From the NCBI GenBank assembly GCA_963790205.1, contig CAWBNQ010000002.1:96001-160000 (forward strand): a stretch of 64,000 nt of DNA, read 5' to 3'. The notes below the pieces were generated by a model. That model was not told the origin of the DNA. It did no database searches and saw nothing but the letters and a program-made list of their open reading frames with translations. Source of the stretch: Nitrospirota bacterium (lineage in GTDB: Bacteria > Nitrospirota > UBA9217). Every line of letters starts with the position of its first letter. The first letter of the stretch is position 1. The translations under genes and the position numbers were made by a program. Below, piece after piece: positions 50,295 to 63,557 of this stretch.

Positions 50295-51251
50295 ATGAAT
50301 AGTTCGATGACAATTGACAGAGAGTGCGAAATAGAAGAGCTTCCGGACAGTAATGGTGACGTAAAGAATCGGGATGGCCGGGAGGAGGCGCGCGATGCCG
50401 AGGGAGGGCGGCCGGCCCAAACCGGGCTCGATGCAATCAAGTATTATCTCAAGGAAATACGGAAAATACCCCTTCTTACCTTCGAGCAGGAGCAGGACCT
50501 GGGAAAGAGGACGGCCCAGGGCGACCAGGAAGCCCGGGCCCGGATGATAGAATCCAACCTCCGTCTTGTTGTCGCCATCGGCAAAAAGTACATCAACAGG
50601 GGACTGCAGTTTTCGGACATCATCGAAGAAGGCAACCTCGGCCTGATCAGGGCCGTGGAAAAATTCCAGTATGAACGGGGATTTAAATTCAGCACGTATG
50701 CTTCCTGGTGGATCAGGCAGGCCATCGAGCGGGCGATCGTCAACCAGTCAAGGACCATCCGCCTCCCGGTCCATATTGCCGAGATCGTCCACGCCTATAT
50801 GCGCGCCGTACGGCAGCTGACGCAGGAACTCGGGCGTGAACCCCATATCGAAGAGATCGCTGAAAAAATAGGATCGCCCATCGAAAAGGTGAGGGGCATT
50901 TCTCAGGTCGTACGAGAGACCTATTCCCTGGACATGCTCGTCGGGGACCAGGAGGAAGACACTCTCAAAGAAGTGCTTCAGGACACGAAAGCCGTCTCGC
51001 CGGCCAGTTTTTCCGATGACATCAGCAGGAAGAAACAGATCAATACATGGCTGGCGCAGCTTTCGGTGAGCGAGCACAAGGTCATCGAGATGCGGTTCGG
51101 CCTGACAGGCGGCGATGCCCAGACCCTGGACAGTATCGGGAAGGAATTCGGGATCACCAGGGAACGGGTAAGACAGATCGAGGTCCAAGCGCTTAGGAAA
51201 TTGAGGGCTATCACGAAACTCAAGAAAATCAGCCTCGAAGTCATGCTGTGA
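50295..51251 (+). CDS. RpoS/RpoD-like sigma-70 factor (paralog 1)
   Basis: [30 protein letters not shown] and TRERVRQIE motifs; lacks region 1.1. Confidence 0.93.
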
Positions 51252-53397: not shown

Positions 53398-54405
53398 ATG
53401 AACGAATGGCTGAAGCCGGTTGAGGGCCTGATGGTTGCGGACCGCTACGAACGTGACGTTGAAGCCGAAGCGATTTATCCCGCCGAGCGAGCGTATAATA
53501 ATGCCGAAGAACGCGAGGAGCAGCGGGATGAAGAGGCCGGAGGCCGCGCCCGGGGAACAGGGGGGCAGAAGAGCGCTCCCGCTGATTCCTTAAAGTATTA
53601 TCTCAAGGACATACGGAAGTCCCCGCTCCTCTCGTTTGCCGAGGAGCAGGAACTTGGCAAACGTACGGCAGCAGGCGACCCGGAGGCGCGGGCGAAGATG
53701 ATAGAGTCCAACCTGCGCCTGGTCGTGGCCATTGCAAAAAAGTACGTAAACCGCGGCCTGTCCTTTTCCGACGTCATCGCAGAAGGCAACCTCGGCCTTA
53801 TCCGGGCCGTTGAGAAGTTCGATTATCGCAAGGGGTTCAAATTCAGTACGTACGCTTCCTGGTGGATCAGGCAGTTCATCGAGCGGGCTTTTGTCAACCA
53901 GCTGAGCACCATCCGCCTGCCGGTACACGTTGCGGAGGTCGTCAATCACTACAGGCGCACGACGACATTCCTGACGCGGGAACTGGAAAGGGAACCGACC
54001 ATGGACGAAATCGCGAAGCAGATGAAGATAAGCCTTGAAAAGGCGCGAGGCATCTCTCAGGTGGTGCGCGAGACCGTGTCCCTTGACACCATCATCGGCG
54101 AAAAAGACGAAGATACCCTTAAAGACGTACTGAAGGACGGCGACGCGGTCGCGCCTGACATTCATTCCGAGAGCATCCGCCGGCGCGAGCATGTCGAGAG
54201 ATGGCTGTCGAAGCTTACCGAGAGCGAGCGCCAGGTGATCGAGCAGCGGTTCGGGTTGAATGACGGGGAGCCGATGACCCTCGATAAGATCGGCCGGCGG
54301 TGCAAGATCACGCGAGAGCGGGTCAGGCAGATCGAGAGCAAGGCGCTGAACAAATTGCGAAATATCACCAGGGAAGAGAACCTTGCGCTTGACCTGGTGC
54401 TGTAA
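53398..54405 (+). CDS. RpoS/RpoD-like sigma-70 factor (paralog 2)
   Basis: Same region 2-4 motifs as paralog 1; GGAGGAGG RBS. Confidence 0.93.
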
Positions 54406-55001: not shown

Positions 55002-55457
55002 ATGATGATAGCGATCGGAGCGGACCACGGCGGCTACTACCTGAAGAACGTGCTCGTCAACTACTTGTACCAGCTGGGGCATACGGTAAACGACTTCGGC
55101 ACGTACGGCGAGGAAGCGGTTGATTATCCCGATTATGCCCGCTCCGTGGCCGGAGCCGTGCTCGACGGCAAGGCCGAGCGGGGCATCCTGATCTGCGGCA
55201 GCGGGGTGGGCGCCGGCGTGGCCGCGAACAAGTTCCCGGGCGTCCGGGCGGCGGTCTGCCACGATACGTTCTCGGCGCATCAGGGGGTGGAGGACGACAA
55301 CATGAACGTTCTCTGTCTCGGGGCGCGTGTTGTGGGGACGGAACTCGCAAAGGAAATCGTCCGCACGTTTTTGCGCGCGTCATTCTCACAAGCCGAGCGA
55401 CATGTAAGGCGATTGGGAAAGGTTTCAGATATCGAGAGGGAGTTCATGAAAAAATAG
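55002..55457 (+). CDS. rpiB: Ribose-5-phosphate isomerase B
   Basis: GADHGG, DYPD, ICGSGVG and NVLCLGAR motifs. Confidence 0.95.
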   Translation: MMIAIGADHGGYYLKNVLVNYLYQLGHTVNDFGTYGEEAVDYPDYARSVAGAVLDGKAERGILICGSGVGAGVAANKFPGVRAAVCHDTFSAHQGVEDDNMNVLCLGARVVGTELAKEIVRTFLRASFSQAERHVRRLGKVSDIEREFMKK

Positions 55458-55639
55458 GAGTCTACGCCGTTCAGCCACTTCACTTCGGCGCAAGGAGCAT
55501 CAGGCTGTTTTGCGCCGTCTTTAAACGCATAAGCGCATTAACCTGCAGCATTTTGCCATGCACGAGTTGTTTTGGCCGGAGTTCATTCATTAACCCGAGT
55601 CTCGACCGGGAACTCGAAACTTCCGAAGGAGATGTCGCT

Positions 55640-56551
55640 ATGAAACTCGGTTACATCGGCTTGGGCAAGATGGGCTACAATATGGTCGAATTGCTCCTCG
55701 ACAAGGGGCACCAGGTCGTTGCCTACAACAGGACCTCAGTGTCCGTTCAAAAGATCGCGCAGCGCGGGGCGCAGCCCGCAGACTCGATCAGCGCTCTCGT
55801 GGCAGCGCTGACGCCGCCTCGGCTTGTCTGGCTCATGGTTCCCCATCAGGCAGTCGACGATGTCCTTAAGGATATCGTACCGCTCCTCACGAAGAATGAT
55901 GTCGTGATCGACGGCGGGAACTCGCCGTATAAGGAATCGATTCGGCGCGCTGCGGAGCTGAAAAAGAAGGGCATAGATTTCATTGATGCGGGTACCAGCG
56001 GGGGGCCGGGCGGCGCGCGCACCGGAGCGTGCATCATGGTCGGCGGCAACAAGGAAGTGTTCCTGAAGTATGAGCAGCTCTTTCGTGATTTATCCGCCGA
56101 GAACGGGTACGCGTACCTGGGAAAGTCCGGCGCAGGCCATTTTGTGAAGATGGTCCACAACGGCATAGAGTACGGTATGATGCAGGCCCTGGCCGAAGGG
56201 TTTTCGGTCATGAAGGCGTCGTCCTATGACCTGGACATGGTAGAGGTTGCCGACCTCTATAATCACCGAAGCGTTATCGAATCACGGCTGGTAAGCTGGC
56301 TCAAGGCCGCTTTTGAGCAGTACGGCACGGAATTGAAGGGTATCTCCGGCTCCGCTGCGCAGAGCGGCGAAGGGATGTGGACCATCGAGGCCGCAAAAGA
56401 GCTCGGTATCCCGGTGCCGGTCATCGAGGGGGCGCTTGAGTTCCGTCTTGCGTCGCAGAAAAACCCGAGTTATGCCGGACAGGTCGTCTCGGCCCTCCGG
56501 CACCAGTTCGGCGGCCACGAGGTGATGACGGAAGTAAGAAGTAAGAAGTAA
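55640..56551 (+). CDS. gnd: 6-phosphogluconate dehydrogenase (decarboxylating, short form)
   Basis: GLGKMG, DGGNS, KMVHNGIEYG and LRHQFGGH motifs. Confidence 0.95.
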   Translation: MKLGYIGLGKMGYNMVELLLDKGHQVVAYNRTSVSVQKIAQRGAQPADSISALVAALTPPRLVWLMVPHQAVDDVLKDIVPLLTKNDVVIDGGNSPYKESIRRAAELKKKGIDFIDAGTSGGPGGARTGACIMVGGNKEVFLKYEQLFRDLSAENGYAYLGKSGAGHFVKMVHNGIEYGMMQALAEGFSVMKASSYDLDMVEVADLYNHRSVIESRLVSWLKAAFEQYGTELKGISGSAAQSGEGMWTIEAAKELGIPVPVIEGALEFRLASQKNPSYAGQVVSALRHQFGGHEVMTEVRSKK

Positions 56552-56558
56552 GAAGGTG

Positions 56559-57446
56559 ATGATGAGACCTCAAAACCTGAAGACGCGAATATTCCTTGAC
56601 GGCGGGAACACCGACGAGACGAGGGAAATCATTAAACTACTCGGCTTTCTCGACGGCCAGACCACGAACCCCACGCTTATCTCAAAAAATCCCGAGGCCC
56701 ACAGACGGCTCGAAAGCGGCGAGAAATTCAGCACGGACGAGATATACGATTTTTACCGCGGCGTGGTCAAGACCCTTTCCGGGTTGATCCCGCTGGGATC
56801 GGTTTCCATTGAAGTGTATGCCGATGCCGCGACGAAAGCAGGTTCCATGCTGAAGCAGGGCCATGAGATGTTCTCCTGGATCCCCAACGCGCATATAAAA
56901 TTCCCCACATCGCGGGAAGGACTCAAAGCGGCGGCACAGGCCATACAAGAAGGTCTTCGCGTGAACATGACCCTCTGCTTCTCCCAGGAGCAGGCCGCGG
57001 CCGTGCATGCGGCGACGCAGGGTGCAAAGAAGGGGGAGGTATTCGTTTCGCCTTTCATCGGCAGGCTTGACGACCGCGGTGAAAACGGCATGGATGTGAT
57101 CGCCAACATCATCAGGATGTACCGGAAAGGCGACGGGCATGTGGAGGTCCTGACCGCGAGCGTGAGGAACCGCGACCACTTTCTGTATGCGCTCAAGCTC
57201 GGCTCGGACATCATTACCGCGCCGTATGAAGTATTAAAAGCCTGGGGAGAACAGGGGATGCCGGTGCCCGGGAATGATTATCGCTATGACGCAAAGTCGC
57301 TGAAGCCTATAGCCTATAGGGAGCTTGATCTCAACAGCAGCTGGGAAGAGCTCGACATTCGTCACGAACTGACGGAAACGGGCATGGAACGATTCTCTGC
57401 GGACTGGAACGCCTTGATTAAAACGGAAAAAAGGAAGATAGCCTAA
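56559..57446 (+). CDS. tal: Transaldolase family protein
   Basis: FLDG, TTNPTL, IKFP, NMTLCFS, SPFIGRLDD and ASVR motifs. Confidence 0.88.
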   Translation: MMRPQNLKTRIFLDGGNTDETREIIKLLGFLDGQTTNPTLISKNPEAHRRLESGEKFSTDEIYDFYRGVVKTLSGLIPLGSVSIEVYADAATKAGSMLKQGHEMFSWIPNAHIKFPTSREGLKAAAQAIQEGLRVNMTLCFSQEQAAAVHAATQGAKKGEVFVSPFIGRLDDRGENGMDVIANIIRMYRKGDGHVEVLTASVRNRDHFLYALKLGSDIITAPYEVLKAWGEQGMPVPGNDYRYDAKSLKPIAYRELDLNSSWEELDIRHELTETGMERFSADWNALIKTEKRKIA

Positions 57447-57449
57447 CCT

Positions 57450-59018
57450 ATGGATGCTCCCCTTGCTCAAGAGAAAATAACGCAGACGGAAACGATCCTG
57501 GCGCCGGAGTACCGGACCATTGAGAACTGCGAGATCGAAGTGCCGCGGGCGGCCGCCCTGATCATCTTCGGCGCATCAGGCGACCTTGCGCATCGAAAGC
57601 TCCTCCCCTCGCTGTACCGTCTTTTTAAAAACCGGATGCTCACCGAGGAGTTTTTTATCCTCGGGACGAGCCGGATCGAGATGACCACGGAGCAGTTTCG
57701 CGCGTCCATGCTCGAATCGGTCAAGGAAGCGCATCCGAACGAGTTCGACCAGCCGGTCTGGGACGCGCTCGCAGCCAGAATCTACTACTCCACCTTCGAT
57801 TACGGCGCCCCGGAGTCTTACGCCGTCAAACTCAAAGACATCCTGCCCAAACTCGAGAACAAACATCGGACCAGAGGGAACCGCATATATTACCTGGCCA
57901 TACCGCCTACGGTCTTTGAAGAGGTCATTCATAACCTGGGAGCCGCGGGCCTGTCGCGCGAGGACAACGGTTGCAGCCACGTCGTGATCGAAAAGCCTTT
58001 CGGCAGCGATCTTGCCACGGCCCGGAAGCTGAACAGGCTGGTACATACCTATTATAAGGAGAGCCAGATCTTTCGCATCGACCACTACCTGGCCAAGGAG
58101 ACGGTGCAGAACATTCTTATGTTCCGTTTCGCCAACTCCATCTTCGAGCCGCTCTGGAACAGGCGCTACGTGGACCATGTGCAGATCACCGCGGCCGAGA
58201 CCCTCGGCGTGGAGCACCGGGCCGGTTACTACGAAACAGCGGGCGTGCTCCGCGACATGTTCCAAAACCACATGTTTCAACTCCTGTCCCTTACGGCCAT
58301 GGAGCCGCCCGCGGCGTTCATCGCCGACCGGGTGAGGGACGAGAAGGCAAAGGTCCTTCGTTCCGTGCGGAGGTTGTCCTCCGAAACGCTAGCTGACCAT
58401 CTGGTAGTCGGCCAGTACGCGCGGGGGACCATCGACGGGCGGGAAGTCCGAGGATACCGGGAAGAGGAGGGGGTCGATCAACGCTCGACGACGCCGACCT
58501 TCGCCGCAATGAAACTCTTCATCGACAACTGGCGCTGGCAGGGCGTTCCTTTCTACCTCCGTTCCGGCAAGTGTCTTGCCAGCAGGCAGACCGAGATCTC
58601 AATTCATTTCAGGCAGGTGCCGCACTCCCTGTTTCCTGATTCCGTCGGGGACCCGATCGAGGCGAACACCCTCGTATTGAAGATCCAGCCCGGCGAAGGC
58701 ATGGGCCTCATGTTCCAGACCAAGGAGCCGGGAACAAAGATCTGTCTGAACCCCGTGGAGATGACCTATTCCTACCCCCGCGGGGTATCGCTCGATGCCT
58801 ACGAATGGGTCCTGCTCGAATGCATGCTCGGCGATCAAATGCTGTTTATGCGGGAGGACAGTGTTGAGCTTGCGTGGTCCGTGCTGACCCCGGTCCTCGA
58901 TGCTTTGGAAACGGGCGTGCGCGCGCCGATCGCGCCCTACGCAGCGGGGTCGGCCGCGGGGCCCGCTGAGGCCGTGCGCCTGATAGAAAAGGATGGCCGC
59001 GCATGGAGGCCGTTGTGA
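57450..59018 (+). CDS. zwf: Glucose-6-phosphate 1-dehydrogenase
   Basis: [21 protein letters not shown] and [14 protein letters not shown] motifs. Confidence 0.96.
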
Positions 59019-59770
59019 CCGGCAAACCGGACGAGCGCGTCCAGGTCTTTCAGGACCTGGAGGCGTTGAGCCATGCGGCCGCCGAATTATTTACTACCCG
59101 TGCAAAGCGACGTGTTGCCGCACAGGGCAGATTTACCGTCGCTCTCTCAGGCGGCGCCACGCCCCGCCGTCTGTACACGCTCCTCGGTTCAACTCCCTAT
59201 CGTGAAAACGTTGAATGGAAACAAGCGCATGTTTTCTGGGCCGATGAACGATGCGTACCCGGAGACCATCCCGAGAGCAACTTCAAGCTTGCCGTTGATG
59301 CGTTCCTTTCCAGCGTCGCCATGCCGAAAGAGAACATTCACCGGATCAAGGGAGAAGAGGGTCCCGGGCGCGCTGCCCAGGACTATGAACAGGATATCCG
59401 CTCGTTTTTCGGGCCGGCCTTGTTTCCGCTTTTCGACCTCATTATTCTCGGCGCAGGCGAGGACGGTCATACGGCGTCGCTCTTCCCGGATTCAGCCTCC
59501 CTGCGCGAAAGGACGCGGCTTGCCCTGCCTGTGTATCTTGAACCCCCGAAGCTCAACCGGGTGACGCTCACGCTCCCAGTGCTGAATCATGCTGCTGAGG
59601 TACTCTTTCTTGCTTCGGGACGCGCCAAGGCCGGGGTCGTGCAGGCGATCGTAGAAAAGGGGAACCCGATGCGCTACCCGGCCGGACTGGTTCAGCCGGT
59701 GCAAGGCAGTATTACCTGGTTCATTGACAGGCAGGCCGCAGACTTATTGGCGGATCATGGCCATACGTAA
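59015..59770 (+). CDS. pgl: 6-phosphogluconolactonase
   Basis: [18 protein letters not shown] and [11 protein letters not shown] motifs. Confidence 0.94.
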
Positions 59771-59867
59771 GTATTCCATTGGCTGTAACCGGTTGGTCGA
59801 GGGACCGCAAGCCTTGTTTTTGTGGTATGATTACACTTATCCTGATCAGAGAGGAGGTGAAAACAGG

Positions 59868-59990
59868 ATGAAGAAGTCAGTGAGCAGGGACGCTCTCGTC
59901 AAAGAGGCTGCCTACTGGATGGCCATGAAGCAATCGGCGAAGCAGAATCCTGGTACGGTATGCCGCAAATGAAAGGGTTGAAAGAGCTAA
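59868..59990 (+). CDS. Putative selenocysteine-containing RiPP precursor, 40 aa, ending CRK-U-KG-U-KS
   Basis: Strong GAGGAGGTG RBS; in-frame TGA at 59970 and 59979 in register with a Cys codon; TAA at 59988; SECIS-like hairpin follows; radical SAM/SPASM gene downstream. Confidence 0.7.
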
Positions 59991-60006
59991 GTTGCTGGTC
60001 AGCAAC
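59991..60006 (+). promoter_or_regulatory. Bacterial SECIS-like hairpin
   Basis: GTTGCT-GGTC-AGCAAC perfect 6-bp stem with a GGUC loop, like the E. coli fdhF SelB-binding minihelix. Confidence 0.6.
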
Positions 60007-60248
60007 GAAAACCGAAGCCGGCAGGTATGGCGCTCAGGGGTTGCCGTCAGGAAACGGCGCTGTTCGCCATATCTTCCGGCCTTCCTTGTACGTCATGAGG
60101 CCGGAAAGTTAAGAAATTGTGAAGTTGGAAGAAATTTTTACCTGTGCCATCTTCCATCTTTTTGCCTTCCCATAATTCTAAGCGCCTTCCCGCGGCCGGC
60201 GGGAGCGAAGAAGACCTGTTATCACGGCAGCATTCATGCGGCACGCTT

Positions 60249-61298
60249 ATGGCGACCAACAAGCCTTTTGAATTTTTTATCCAGTGGCATCTTACCGAAC
60301 GCTGCAACCTCCGGTGCAGACATTGCTACCAGGGCGAACGGAGCGCGGACGAGATGCCGCTCCCGGCAATACGAAACGTCATCATCGAAGTGTCGGATAT
60401 GGTCAAAGACTGGTCGGAATCCTACGGCGTCTCTTTTTCTCCAAGCATGAACGTTACCGGAGGAGAACCGTTCCTGAGAAACGACCTTCTCGAAATCCTC
60501 GGCGAAATCAAAAAGCAGGGATTTAAAATTTACCTTCTCACGAACGGCACTCTCGTGGACAAAAAGAGGGCCCGCATGCTCGCGGACCTCGGCGTGGACG
60601 GGGTCCAGGTGAGCATGGAAGGACCGGAGGATGTGCATGATGCCATCCGCGGCGCCGGCAGTTATTCCGCGTCCGCAGCCGGCGTTGAGCAGCTGGTAGA
60701 TGCCGGGATCGCGGTGACCCTGAATGTCACCGTCTCGAATATCAATGCGGGACAGGTGAACAGGATCATCACCTTCGCTTCCCATGCCGGAGTGAAGCGG
60801 GTGGGTTTTTCGCGACTGGTGCCTGCCGGCAGAGGGCGGGCGCTGCTGTCGCACATGCTCACCCGGGCGCAGGTCAAAGAACTCTACGAGGAGCTTCTTT
60901 CTCTGGAGCTCAAAGGCCTCGATGTTGTCACGGGCGATCCCGTGGCTGCGCAAATGAAAATGAAGGCCAAGAGGGATGCGGGAAGTACGGCAATCAGCGG
61001 CTGTGCCGCGGGTGTTTCGGGGTTGACGATACAGCCGAACGGCAACGTCACCCCCTGCAGGCGGTTGCCCCTTTCTCTCGGCAATGTACGGAGGGATTCT
61101 CTGCGTGAGATATGGGCCGCATCGCCCGTGCTTGAAGCGCTTCGGGACAGGAACAAATACAAGGGAAAATGCGGCGCCTGCACCCGGTGGGCGCGGTGCA
61201 GAGGCTGCAGGGCCATTGCCTACGCCTGGTCCCGTTCAAAGGGAGCTGACGATTTCCTTGCCGACGATCCGCAGTGTTTTATTGAGACAACAGCCTGA
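60249..61298 (+). CDS. Radical SAM/SPASM domain protein (candidate peptide maturase)
   Basis: CNLRCRHC and TGGEP; SPASM motif CAAG...PC...CGAC....CRGCRA...DPQC. Confidence 0.92.
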   Translation: MATNKPFEFFIQWHLTERCNLRCRHCYQGERSADEMPLPAIRNVIIEVSDMVKDWSESYGVSFSPSMNVTGGEPFLRNDLLEILGEIKKQGFKIYLLTNGTLVDKKRARMLADLGVDGVQVSMEGPEDVHDAIRGAGSYSASAAGVEQLVDAGIAVTLNVTVSNINAGQVNRIITFASHAGVKRVGFSRLVPAGRGRALLSHMLTRAQVKELYEELLSLELKGLDVVTGDPVAAQMKMKAKRDAGSTAISGCAAGVSGLTIQPNGNVTPCRRLPLSLGNVRRDSLREIWAASPVLEALRDRNKYKGKCGACTRWARCRGCRAIAYAWSRSKGADDFLADDPQCFIETTA

Positions 61299-61314
61299 AG
61301 CCGAGGAGGTGACC

Positions 61315-61824
61315 ATGGATGCACTGACCGCGATTTTTTCACGAAGAAGTGTGCGGATCTATACGACGAAGCCGGTGCCCCACGACACGGTGACCGACCT
61401 CGTGCGGGCCGCCATGTATGCGCCCTCGGCCGGGAATGAGCGGCCCTGGCACTTTATCGTCCTCACGGACCGCGCGCTCCTCGACGAGATCCCGAAGTTT
61501 CATCCCTATGCCGCCATGCTGAAGCACGCGTCCACGGCCGTTCTCGTCTGCGGCGACGTTTCCCTCGAGAAACACAAGGGCTACTGGGTGCTCGACTGCG
61601 CCGCAGCCACACAGACCCTGCTGCTCGCGGCGCATTCCAAAGGGCTGGGCGCAGTCTGGTGCGGCGTCTATCCCACCGAAGACCGCGTGGAGAACCTTCG
61701 GAAACTGCTGGAGTTGCCTGAGCACGTGGTCCCCTTTTCTCTCATCCCCCTCGGCTTTCCCGCCGAGGAAAAAACGCCGGTGGAGCGATTCGACGCGTCG
61801 AGAATTCATGACAACCGGTGGTAA
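61315..61824 (+). CDS. Nitroreductase family protein
   Basis: RRSVR, APSAGN.RPW.F and GLGAVWCG motifs; GAGGAGG RBS, 16 bp after the radical SAM stop. Confidence 0.93.
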   Translation: MDALTAIFSRRSVRIYTTKPVPHDTVTDLVRAAMYAPSAGNERPWHFIVLTDRALLDEIPKFHPYAAMLKHASTAVLVCGDVSLEKHKGYWVLDCAAATQTLLLAAHSKGLGAVWCGVYPTEDRVENLRKLLELPEHVVPFSLIPLGFPAEEKTPVERFDASRIHDNRW

Positions 61825-62091: not shown

Positions 62092-62646
62092 ATGAAGATC
62101 AGGAGTTCATTATTGCTCGTAATTATTATTGTTTCCATCAGTATGCTTGCTCTTTGGGGATGTCCCAAAAAAGCAGAGGTGACCGCGACGCCGGAGGCGC
62201 AGAAGGAAGTGACGCCGGCAGCCCAAGAAGAGCAGAAGGCGGAGCAGAAGCCGGAAGCCGCAGTGACGGAAGAGGCGAAGCCAGAGGTAAAGGAGGAGAC
62301 CACTGCCGCAGGGGCCGCGGGACTCCAGCCGATCTATTTCGACTTCGACCGGTCCTTTATCCGGGACGACGCCAGGCCTGTCATGAAGGCGAATGCCGAG
62401 TGGCTCAAGGCCAACCCCAAGGTAAAGATCAAGATCGAAGGAAATTGTGACGAACGCGGCACCAAGGAGTACAACCAGGCGCTGGGACAGCGTCGCGCTT
62501 CGAGTGCAAAAAAGTATCTTACCGACCTCGGCATAGCGGCCAAGCGCATCTCCCTTATCAGCTACGGCAAGGAAAAGCCGGTTTGTACCGAGCACAACGA
62601 GGAATGCTGGCAGAAAAACAGAAGGGATGACCTTGTAGCCGAGTAG
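62092..62646 (+). CDS. pal: Peptidoglycan-associated lipoprotein Pal
   Basis: Lipobox LWGC; IYFDFD, EGNCDERGT.EYN.ALG.RRA, SYGKEKP and NRR motifs. Confidence 0.96.
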   Translation: MKIRSSLLLVIIIVSISMLALWGCPKKAEVTATPEAQKEVTPAAQEEQKAEQKPEAAVTEEAKPEVKEETTAAGAAGLQPIYFDFDRSFIRDDARPVMKANAEWLKANPKVKIKIEGNCDERGTKEYNQALGQRRASSAKKYLTDLGIAAKRISLISYGKEKPVCTEHNEECWQKNRRDDLVAE

Positions 62647-62711
62647 GACATCGCGCACACGGCGCGGGGCAAGGAAAAGCCTGCCCTGCGCCGTTCCCCC
62701 CAACAACCATT

Positions 62712-63557
62712 ATGAAGAAGATAAAACTCTCTCTTATCGTCGGTCTTATCCTGCTGTTTTCCGCCTGCGCACCGCAGGCCGCGCTCGTAAAGACCAGGTC
62801 CGAGCTGTCGGACCTGCGCGAGGACACGAAGGAGAACAAGGCCCGCAACGAGGACATACAGAAGCGTCTTTACCTGCTCGAAGCGAATGTCAAGGGCACG
62901 GTCGACGTGCAGAAGGTCATGGCCGATTACGGCGCAAAAACGGACCAGCTCGCCACGGACATCCAACTGCTTCAGGGAAAGCTCGAGGAAAACAACTTCC
63001 GCATCGCCGATCTCGCGCAGAAGCTGGATGATAAGAGCTTCAAAATCACGGAATTGTCGGCACGGGTCGACGAACTCAATGCCAAGATAAAAGCGCTCGC
63101 CGGGGGGCAGGGACTCTCCTCGGGTCCGAGCGGGACCTCGGCAGAGAAGGACAAAAAATCCGCGCCCAAGGAGGTGGAGCCGTCCGAAGCCTACCGCCTG
63201 GCCATGAACGATTACAACAGCGGCAATTTCGATCTGGCCCTTGCCGGGTTCCAGAACTACCTCGTTCAGTTCCCCAATACCAGCCAGGCGTCCAGCGCCC
63301 AGTACTGGGTGGGTCAATGTTACTACGCCAAGAAAGACTTCACCAAGGCCGTCGATTCCTTTATCAAATTCATAAAGACCTACCCCAAAAGCGAAAAGGT
63401 CCCCGGTGCGGCGCTTAAGATCGGCTACTCCTACCTGAGTGAAAATAATAATGCAAAGGCCAAGGTATGGCTGAACAGGGTTGTTAAGGAGTATCCCGGT
63501 ACCGACGAGGCCGAGCATGCAAAAGCCAAGCTGCGCAAGATGGGGAAAAGTAAGTGA
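62712..63557 (+). CDS. cpoB: Tol-Pal system TPR protein CpoB/YbgF
   Basis: Signal peptide, coiled coil and TPR (AQYWVGQCYY, YP.S.K.P.A.LKIG); follows pal. Confidence 0.9.
   Translation: MKKIKLSLIVGLILLFSACAPQAALVKTRSELSDLREDTKENKARNEDIQKRLYLLEANVKGTVDVQKVMADYGAKTDQLATDIQLLQGKLEENNFRIADLAQKLDDKSFKITELSARVDELNAKIKALAGGQGLSSGPSGTSAEKDKKSAPKEVEPSEAYRLAMNDYNSGNFDLALAGFQNYLVQFPNTSQASSAQYWVGQCYYAKKDFTKAVDSFIKFIKTYPKSEKVPGAALKIGYSYLSENNNAKAKVWLNRVVKEYPGTDEAEHAKAKLRKMGKSK

Follow-up and report, generated by a model that had tools for sequence, protein, structure and literature searches.

The closest described counterpart of the locus reported here is the SbtA/SbtM system, in which a short precursor with two UGA-encoded selenocysteine (Sec) residues is paired with a radical S-adenosylmethionine (SAM)/SPASM maturase in anaerobes (PMC13188914, Table 1; PMC9204691). 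SbtA carries a GGUG motif and is described as forming a thio(seleno)oxazole (PMC9204691). In Table 1 of a 2026 inventory of 119 prokaryotic selenoprotein families, selenobacteriocin is the sole peptide entered as a radical SAM target (PMC13188914). Here we describe a locus in a 64,000-nucleotide stretch of a Nitrospirota genome (contig CAWBNQ010000002.1; the whole stretch is called the window below), in which a gene for a short peptide with two in-frame TGA codons is followed by a gene for a radical SAM/SPASM enzyme. Judged by the comparisons below, this is an uncurated, widespread di-Sec peptide that has a SPASM enzyme dedicated to it, and is a variant of the radical SAM type of RiPP (a peptide made by the ribosome and modified after translation). 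We consider it probable that the two genes form a selenium RiPP system, with the peptide as dedicated substrate of the enzyme. A literature search found no account of this di-Sec family; some recent works or supplements could mention it.

With TGA read as Sec, the peptide gene translates to MKKSVSRDALVKEAAYWMAMKQSAKQNPGTVCRKUKGUKS*, a 31-residue, basic, leader-like part followed by the C-terminal core C-R-K-U-K-G-U-K-S. Residues E13, W17, C32 and K39 are invariant across the homologues, and neither Pfam nor NCBIfam contains a family matching the peptide; a protein atlas likewise gave nothing for it. The elements that the original prediction had recognized, from GAGGAGGTG through the ATG, the TGC, two in-frame TGA codons and the TAA to the enzyme and a nitroreductase ORF (open reading frame), all lie where it had placed them (Table 1).

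Comparison of homologous loci strongly supports a peptide with two UGA-encoded Sec residues, as originally predicted. Using a profile of the 34-residue leader form, to which the TGA codons are invisible, we found the Cys codon and both TGA codons in 85 of 85 distinct loci; this count missed a second subfamily ending in CLAUKSUKGK (11 of 80 metagenomic loci) and one further homologue, L143, and it is not fully blind, many of its loci having originally been fetched with the peptide profile. Over the same 85 loci the terminal stop varies (TAA 41, TGA 33, TAG 11). This drift serves as an internal control, since a UGA too near the hairpin acts as an ordinary stop. In the core, codons change synonymously more often in the peptide frame (share 0.46) than in the other two frames (0.21 and 0.16). 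When 44 distinct loci were retrieved by the enzyme alone, 41 carried a C-x-x-TGA-x-x-TGA core, which is beyond chance, and two TGA codons were likewise present in 73 of the 76 rows matched by the peptide profile in genomes of the phylum.

Protein databases present another picture, from which one could take the first UGA to be a real stop, with a 34-residue product ending in C-x-K and with the later TGA and the hairpin as incidental features. Among the best 120 of 194 database matches, 119 end at C-x-K, no orthologue has a Cys, and in the remaining protein the TGA is translated as W, apparently an artefact of gene calling. We regard a true stop as very improbable. In the 85 loci the first UGA is never replaced by TAA or TAG, a replacement that the original prediction had singled out as damaging to it, whereas the later stop does vary; the codons past the first UGA change mainly synonymously; the Sec insertion sequence (SECIS) covaries; and the peptide is nearly confined to Sec-encoding genomes. 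Very probably, then, on this comparative evidence, the 34-residue database form is a gene truncated at the first TGA, as had been foreseen for automatic gene callers, and the true product is a 40-residue diselenopeptide.

The Sec machinery is present in the source genome, as the Sec reading would have it. This genome is 98% complete and contains selA, selB and selD above the cut-offs of the profile search, the last with an in-frame TGA of its own, and two tRNA-Sec genes (selC) above the Rfam cut-off (C1:656901-656993 and C8:121705-121799), one of which lies about 6 kb from selB. Among 401 genomes of the phylum, selA was detected in 191, and among the 72 with the peptide in 66. Four of the selA-less peptide genomes hold other sel evidence (selB and selC in G035, selC and selD in G007, selC in G219, and a TGA-bearing selD in G002).

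A short hairpin just downstream of the stop codon and entirely in the 3' untranslated region (UTR) has the properties of a bacterial SECIS. The published consensus asks for a loop of 3-9 nt with a G, a stem of 4-16 bp and a distance of 16-37 nt from the UGA (PMC13188914, section 5). The hairpin conforms to this with respect to the first UGA. Across homologues the loop G is 24-27 nt from the first UGA in 72 of 79 scored loci; its distance from the second is 15-18 nt, with 16-18 nt in 68 of the 79. Folded alone (59978-60030), the hairpin is not more stable than shuffled sequences (z -0.20). In 40 homologous loci, 99.6% of the alignment cells are paired and 27 cells are changed on both sides, a degree of covariation reached by 0 of 500 shuffles, a control inflated by kinship; when the pairing scheme is slid along the alignment, the paired share drops to 15-74%. 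A genome-wide scan with the hairpin pattern gave two matches, and only the one at the peptide locus has TGA codons in front of it. The element presumably resembles that of E. coli fdhF. As the spacing fits the consensus model, with the second UGA at its edge, one 3' UTR element can serve both codons, and a single SECIS for both UGAs is apparently what the sequence holds.

The peptide and the enzyme occur together. After removal of one false match (G380), the peptide profile identified 72 of the 401 genomes (73 before removal), and the enzyme was found in 73; both genes are present in 71, that is, in 71 of the 74 genomes with either. In the peptide-only genome, 92 nt separate the peptide from a contig end, and of the two enzyme-only genomes one has an enzyme copy truncated at its 5' end. 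In a second phylum (301 genomes), the enzyme was found in 16 genomes, with the peptide upstream in 16 of 16. Besides the G380 match, a row at a contig end (L101) and duplicate rows (L031, L036, L037) were left out. The enzyme is the sole conserved neighbour of the peptide, and a conserved short precursor gene accompanying the enzyme is what a peptide maturase should show.

Physical linkage is not needed for this association. Seven genomes (G154, G391, G365, G236, G397, G287 and G377) have an intact peptide gene and an intact enzyme gene on different contigs with unrelated flanks, and in two of the seven, decayed remnants of the former partner gene are visible. In G397 the loss is reciprocal, with one locus retaining the peptide and a decayed enzyme start and the other the enzyme and an internally deleted peptide. 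Because both genes are kept intact while unlinked, the peptide would be a partner acting in trans and not a leader in cis.

The enzyme itself has the features of a peptide maturase, namely a CxxxCxxC motif and a SPASM domain with seven auxiliary-cluster cysteines, which are invariant in 85 sequences. Its closest named relatives are Nitrospirota records of 68-73% identity. The predicted structure has a mean pLDDT of 92.6 and starts at the barrel, and in a structure search the nearest folds were SkfB at the top, then PqqE, SuiB, anSME, ChlB and 5why/5wgg. In a FastTree phylogeny (65 sequences over 323 columns, rooted at the midpoint, with weak deep nodes), the peptide-linked enzymes form a clade with a support of 0.91, to which three database proteins without a known context also belong. 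Two relatives of the enzyme, the Thermodesulfobium proteins P0128 and P0131/P0294, have adjacent accessions, which suggests a two-enzyme cluster.

No NCBIfam model reaches its cut-off for the enzyme; the scores are 184.6 of 500 bits for AhbD, 178.9 of 400 for GeoRSP (TIGR04303), 166 of 400 for ACGX (TIGR04340) and 136.4 of 350 for SbtM (TIGR04082). The AhbD score is the highest of these, and two database relatives are automatically named 'AdoMet-dependent heme synthase', so that the enzyme might be taken for AhbD, AhbC or NirJ of the heme pathway next to an unrelated peptide. The probability of this is close to negligible: the AhbD of the source genome is encoded elsewhere (C1:905402, 527.9 bits, above the cut-off) and falls outside the peptide-linked clade, and heme genes are not among the conserved neighbours. 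The original prediction of a dedicated partner distinct from AhbD, NirJ and SbtM thus agrees with the profile scores and the tree.

The locus shares with SbtA/SbtM the combination of a short di-Sec precursor with a radical SAM/SPASM maturase in anaerobes. It differs in the peptide motif, which is CxKUKxUK here and GGUG or SGUG in SbtA, a dissimilarity already suspected in the original prediction. The 'selenobacteriocin' model TIGR04081 matched none of 38 peptides and nothing in the source genome. The SbtM model covers the enzyme only over model positions 199-516 and leaves its own N-terminal extension unmatched. The host range is also different, as most records of the present family are labelled Nitrospirota, Syntrophorhabdus or Thermodesulfobacteriota; among them is Syntrophorhabdus aromaticivorans UI (L016). 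Twelve pattern matches in viral contigs were inspected, and none was confirmed.

The thioether-forming SPASM maturases of ranthipeptides and sactipeptides (PapB, Tte1186/CteB, SkfB, AlbA) resemble the enzyme in fold, in the seven SPASM cysteines and in having a short Cys-type peptide as neighbour. Their models score below cut-off (PapB 85.9 of 340, AlbA 80.2 of 850), and, unlike those systems, the present one has no RiPP recognition element (RRE) domain, uses natural Sec and has a core without an Asp, Glu or Asn acceptor. ACGX and GeoRSP belong to the same broad SPASM subgroup and have proposed small-peptide targets; apart from the low scores already given, ACGX repeats are absent from the peptide and a PqqD-like partner was not found among the conserved neighbours.

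All-Cys peptides are associated with a separate and distant enzyme clade only. Nine of 80 metagenomic loci (L147, L149, L150, L152-L155, L157 and L169) encode unnamed systems with peptides ending in CxxCxxCxxCR, in the form CxQCSSCHGCR, or in TCSKCHHCR. These peptides are short like the di-Sec ones, have cysteines at i, i+3 and i+6 in the C-terminal part together with a basic residue, and lie beside a related SPASM enzyme of about 30-33% identity. They differ in the enzyme clade, in the position of the peptide, which is downstream, and in having extra genes, and no NCBIfam model covers them. Some of these loci contain asparagine-synthase-like and cyclase-repeat genes. The hhalign probability between all-Cys and di-Sec peptides is 11.5%, and the all-Cys systems are best taken as analogues.

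The spacing of the core can also be read without any modification. A true diselenopeptide could be the unmodified partner of the enzyme, acting as a CxxUxxU ligand module for a metal or Fe-S cluster or as a sacrificial selenium donor for another substrate. Co-occurrence and action in trans would be equally well explained in this way; the i, i+3, i+6 spacing is that of ferredoxin motifs, with weak QmoC matches in 2 of 38 members; processing and export genes were not found among the conserved neighbours; and the strict use of Sec, with no Cys substitution, would fit. We nevertheless consider an unmodified partner unlikely. RiPP loci usually have a variable leader and an invariant C-terminal core, with the peptide gene first and a hairpin between the genes. 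The peptide-enzyme locus matches this layout, related enzymes adjoin further short peptides that have CxxCxxC(xxC)R at the end, and the closest solved folds are those of peptide maturases.

Regulatory signals surround the peptide gene. Its Shine-Dalgarno sequence is almost invariant in the alignment and agrees with AGGAGGT at 6 or 7 of the 7 positions in nearly every homologous locus. The extended -10 pattern TGnTAnnnT occurs 20-65 nt upstream of the peptide in 20 of 39 loci, compared with 2.6 expected from shuffles, and the peptide gene probably has its own promoter on this evidence; a sigma-70 promoter scan did not list the site. Between peptide and enzyme lies a second, long hairpin, whose shape is kept while its sequence varies. 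It is more stable than mononucleotide shuffles at z < -2 in 28 of 36 loci, has a U/C-rich tail in most, has no Rfam match at E <= 1 and was not called by a terminator scan. Owing to the varying sequence and the U/C-rich tail, we take it to be like a terminator or an mRNA-stability element and not a SECIS. The SECIS-like hairpin of the original prediction is thus to be found in the short, covarying element and not in the long one.

The base that precedes the Cys codon is conserved as well. In 75 of 89 loci it is A, across many amino acids, and where Val precedes Cys the codon is GTA in 45 of 50 cases, compared with 12% in the source genome. This A creates an ATG in the -1 frame, which is the frame of the enzyme and runs into it in 8 of 82 linked loci; in the window it meets a stop after 50 codons. 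No selection on -1-frame length was seen (median 36 codons versus 44 in the +1 control). A real gene in the -1 frame was rejected, its synonymous share being 0.21 versus 0.46 in the peptide frame, as was a helix inside the ORF as cause of the conserved A, which was hinted at by single folds and lost in the consensus fold. In L022-L026, L087, L089, L095 and L096, the enzyme frame extends back over the SECIS and the Sec codons, with the enzyme start overlapping the peptide core. In the Thermodesulfobium protein P0128, the N-terminal MKEL agrees with the peptide core read in the -1 frame.

The nested AUG, together with the terminator-like hairpin and the promoter-like site, would suit a selenium-sensing leader, in which UGA termination or read-through regulates an enzyme that has another target. 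Such a leader is quite unlikely as the whole function. In the seven unlinked genomes intact genes are held apart, and the peptide upstream of their enzyme copies is lost or degraded; E13, W17, C32 and K39 are invariant; and the -1 frame is no longer than its control. Selenium-sensing regulation may exist as a secondary layer on the peptide system.

Several observations weigh against a Sec-containing RiPP. Homologues with CxxCxxC, which the original prediction had looked to as corroboration, did not appear: no Cys is aligned to a UGA among the best 120 of the 194 database proteins, and no Cys-only orthologue was found in the 85 loci, so that the corroboration normally expected for a Sec call is missing. 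The metagenomic homologue L143, as the sole exception, has TAA at the second UGA site. The distance of the second UGA from the loop G in the window, 15 nt, is 1 nt under the consensus model. The three enzyme-retrieved loci without a peptide have none elsewhere in their genomes either. Two peptide-bearing genomes fit poorly: G019 (86% complete) gave no match to selA, selB, selC or selD, and G017 (63% complete) none to selA or selD. The best NCBIfam score of the enzyme is that for a heme synthase. No RRE was found in the enzyme model, and no RRE, protease or transporter recurs among the conserved neighbours; an RRE is not required in every radical SAM/SPASM RiPP family. Related genomes are not independent, so that the counts given above overstate the association and are descriptive rather than tests. 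Finally, the evidence for the favoured reading is sequence evidence throughout.

For a two-gene selenium RiPP system we propose the following course of events. SelB, acting on the one SECIS just 3' of the stop, would recode both UGAs to give a 40-residue peptide ending in C-x-K-U-K-x-U-K-S. The enzyme would bind the leader without an RRE and then modify the core. Presumably, as in the anSME ligand pattern, the seven SPASM cysteines leave auxiliary cluster I with one open site, at whose iron a selenolate could bind. The 5'-deoxyadenosyl radical would then take a hydrogen from a neighbouring residue, giving Se-C (selenoether) and S-C crosslinks. There is precedent for such steps, since thioether SPASM maturases make selenoethers on synthetic Sec peptides, and PapB and Tte1186 are reported to accept Sec and to bind the substrate selenolate at auxiliary cluster I before selenoether formation (PMC10177961). 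Crosslinking of this kind is the likeliest chemistry, its overall chance being somewhat short of even; SbtM-like oxidation at the Sec beta-carbon comes second and is rather doubtful. The long hairpin would probably keep the peptide mRNA more abundant than that of the enzyme. As no protease, exporter or immunity gene is conserved, the product would probably remain cytoplasmic and act in redox reactions or in binding soft metals.

More tentatively, the product may be a selenoether-crosslinked or selenium-rearranged peptide that occurs naturally in anaerobic Nitrospirota and related anaerobes and serves inside the cell as a selenium-based redox cofactor or a chelator of soft metals. It would be obligately selenium-dependent, having no Cys version, and would depend on two recodings at one 3' UTR SECIS; with the enzyme start nested in the Sec codons, selenium supply could tune the synthesis of the maturase.

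The nitroreductase, which the original prediction had included, is a neighbour in this lineage and not a conserved system part: it directly follows the enzyme in 4 of 65 loci and lies within 1.5 kb in 12 of 65. Elsewhere the genes downstream differ from locus to locus (YceI, pyridine nucleotide-disulfide oxidoreductase, methyltransferase, cytochrome c). In the window, the gene 5' of the peptide encodes 6-phosphogluconolactonase and is the last of a pentose-phosphate-type run (55002-59770; the upstream ORFs were named by eye), a run retained upstream of the peptide in about 20 close relatives; pal and cpoB are found downstream (62092-63557). Two similar sigma-70-type ORFs (50295-51251 and 53398-54405) are each preceded by a small response regulator, as judged by eye. 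RNA data were unused as evidence: there was one run with a share of 0.06, contigs of relatives span the peptide ORF, and transcription or its level is not deducible from them.

Table 1. Features of the di-Sec peptide locus (positions in the window).
Feature	Position	Strand	Remarks
Extended -10 promoter-like site TG-n-TATGAT	59823..59831	+	read from sequence
Shine-Dalgarno sequence of the peptide gene	59851..59859	+	GAGGAGGTG; read directly
Peptide ORF, predicted 40-residue precursor	59868..59990	+	ATG 59868, TGC 59961-63, TAA 59988-90
Nested ATG, -1 frame	59960..59962	+	conserved A precedes the Cys codon
UGA 1, predicted Sec35	59970..59972	+	TGA in 85/85 loci; 24 nt from SECIS loop G
UGA 2, predicted Sec38	59979..59981	+	TGA in 85/85 loci; 15 nt from SECIS loop G
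Putative SECIS hairpin, entirely in 3' UTR	59991..60006	+	6 bp, loop GGUC, covariation
Long stem-loop followed by a pyrimidine tail, in the peptide-enzyme interval	60014..60084	+	z -4.22
Radical SAM/SPASM enzyme, 349 residues	60249..61298	+	Pfam Radical_SAM and SPASM
Nitroreductase-family protein	61315..61824	+	PF00881

Some loci are arranged differently. Genome G343 has three peptide copies (L084, L085 and L086), one beside the enzyme, a second between a YeeE/YedE transporter gene and FtrD-like and NosL genes, and a third preceding YceI and a disulfide oxidoreductase. In L093 (G161) peptide and enzyme are separated by an inserted integrase-domain gene, and at L144:4085 a peptide of the CLAUKSUKGK subfamily lies 3' of the enzyme instead of 5'. 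At L088:2-2827, next to an unlinked peptide copy, there is a large ORF that encodes domains of the SpvB, FG-GAP and insecticidal-toxin types.

The peptide family has been hidden because databases hold its 34-residue truncation. If the proposed system is real, it would be a second radical SAM target family, unrelated to selenobacteriocin and present in 72 of 401 and 16 of 301 genomes of two phyla, and it would possibly provide the first natural selenoether. It would make it possible to study on a natural substrate how selenium is handled by SPASM clusters, and to test in a compact setting whether a single bacterial SECIS lying outside the frame can serve two UGAs 9 nt apart. Since a named organism, Syntrophorhabdus aromaticivorans UI, carries the system, direct testing is possible.

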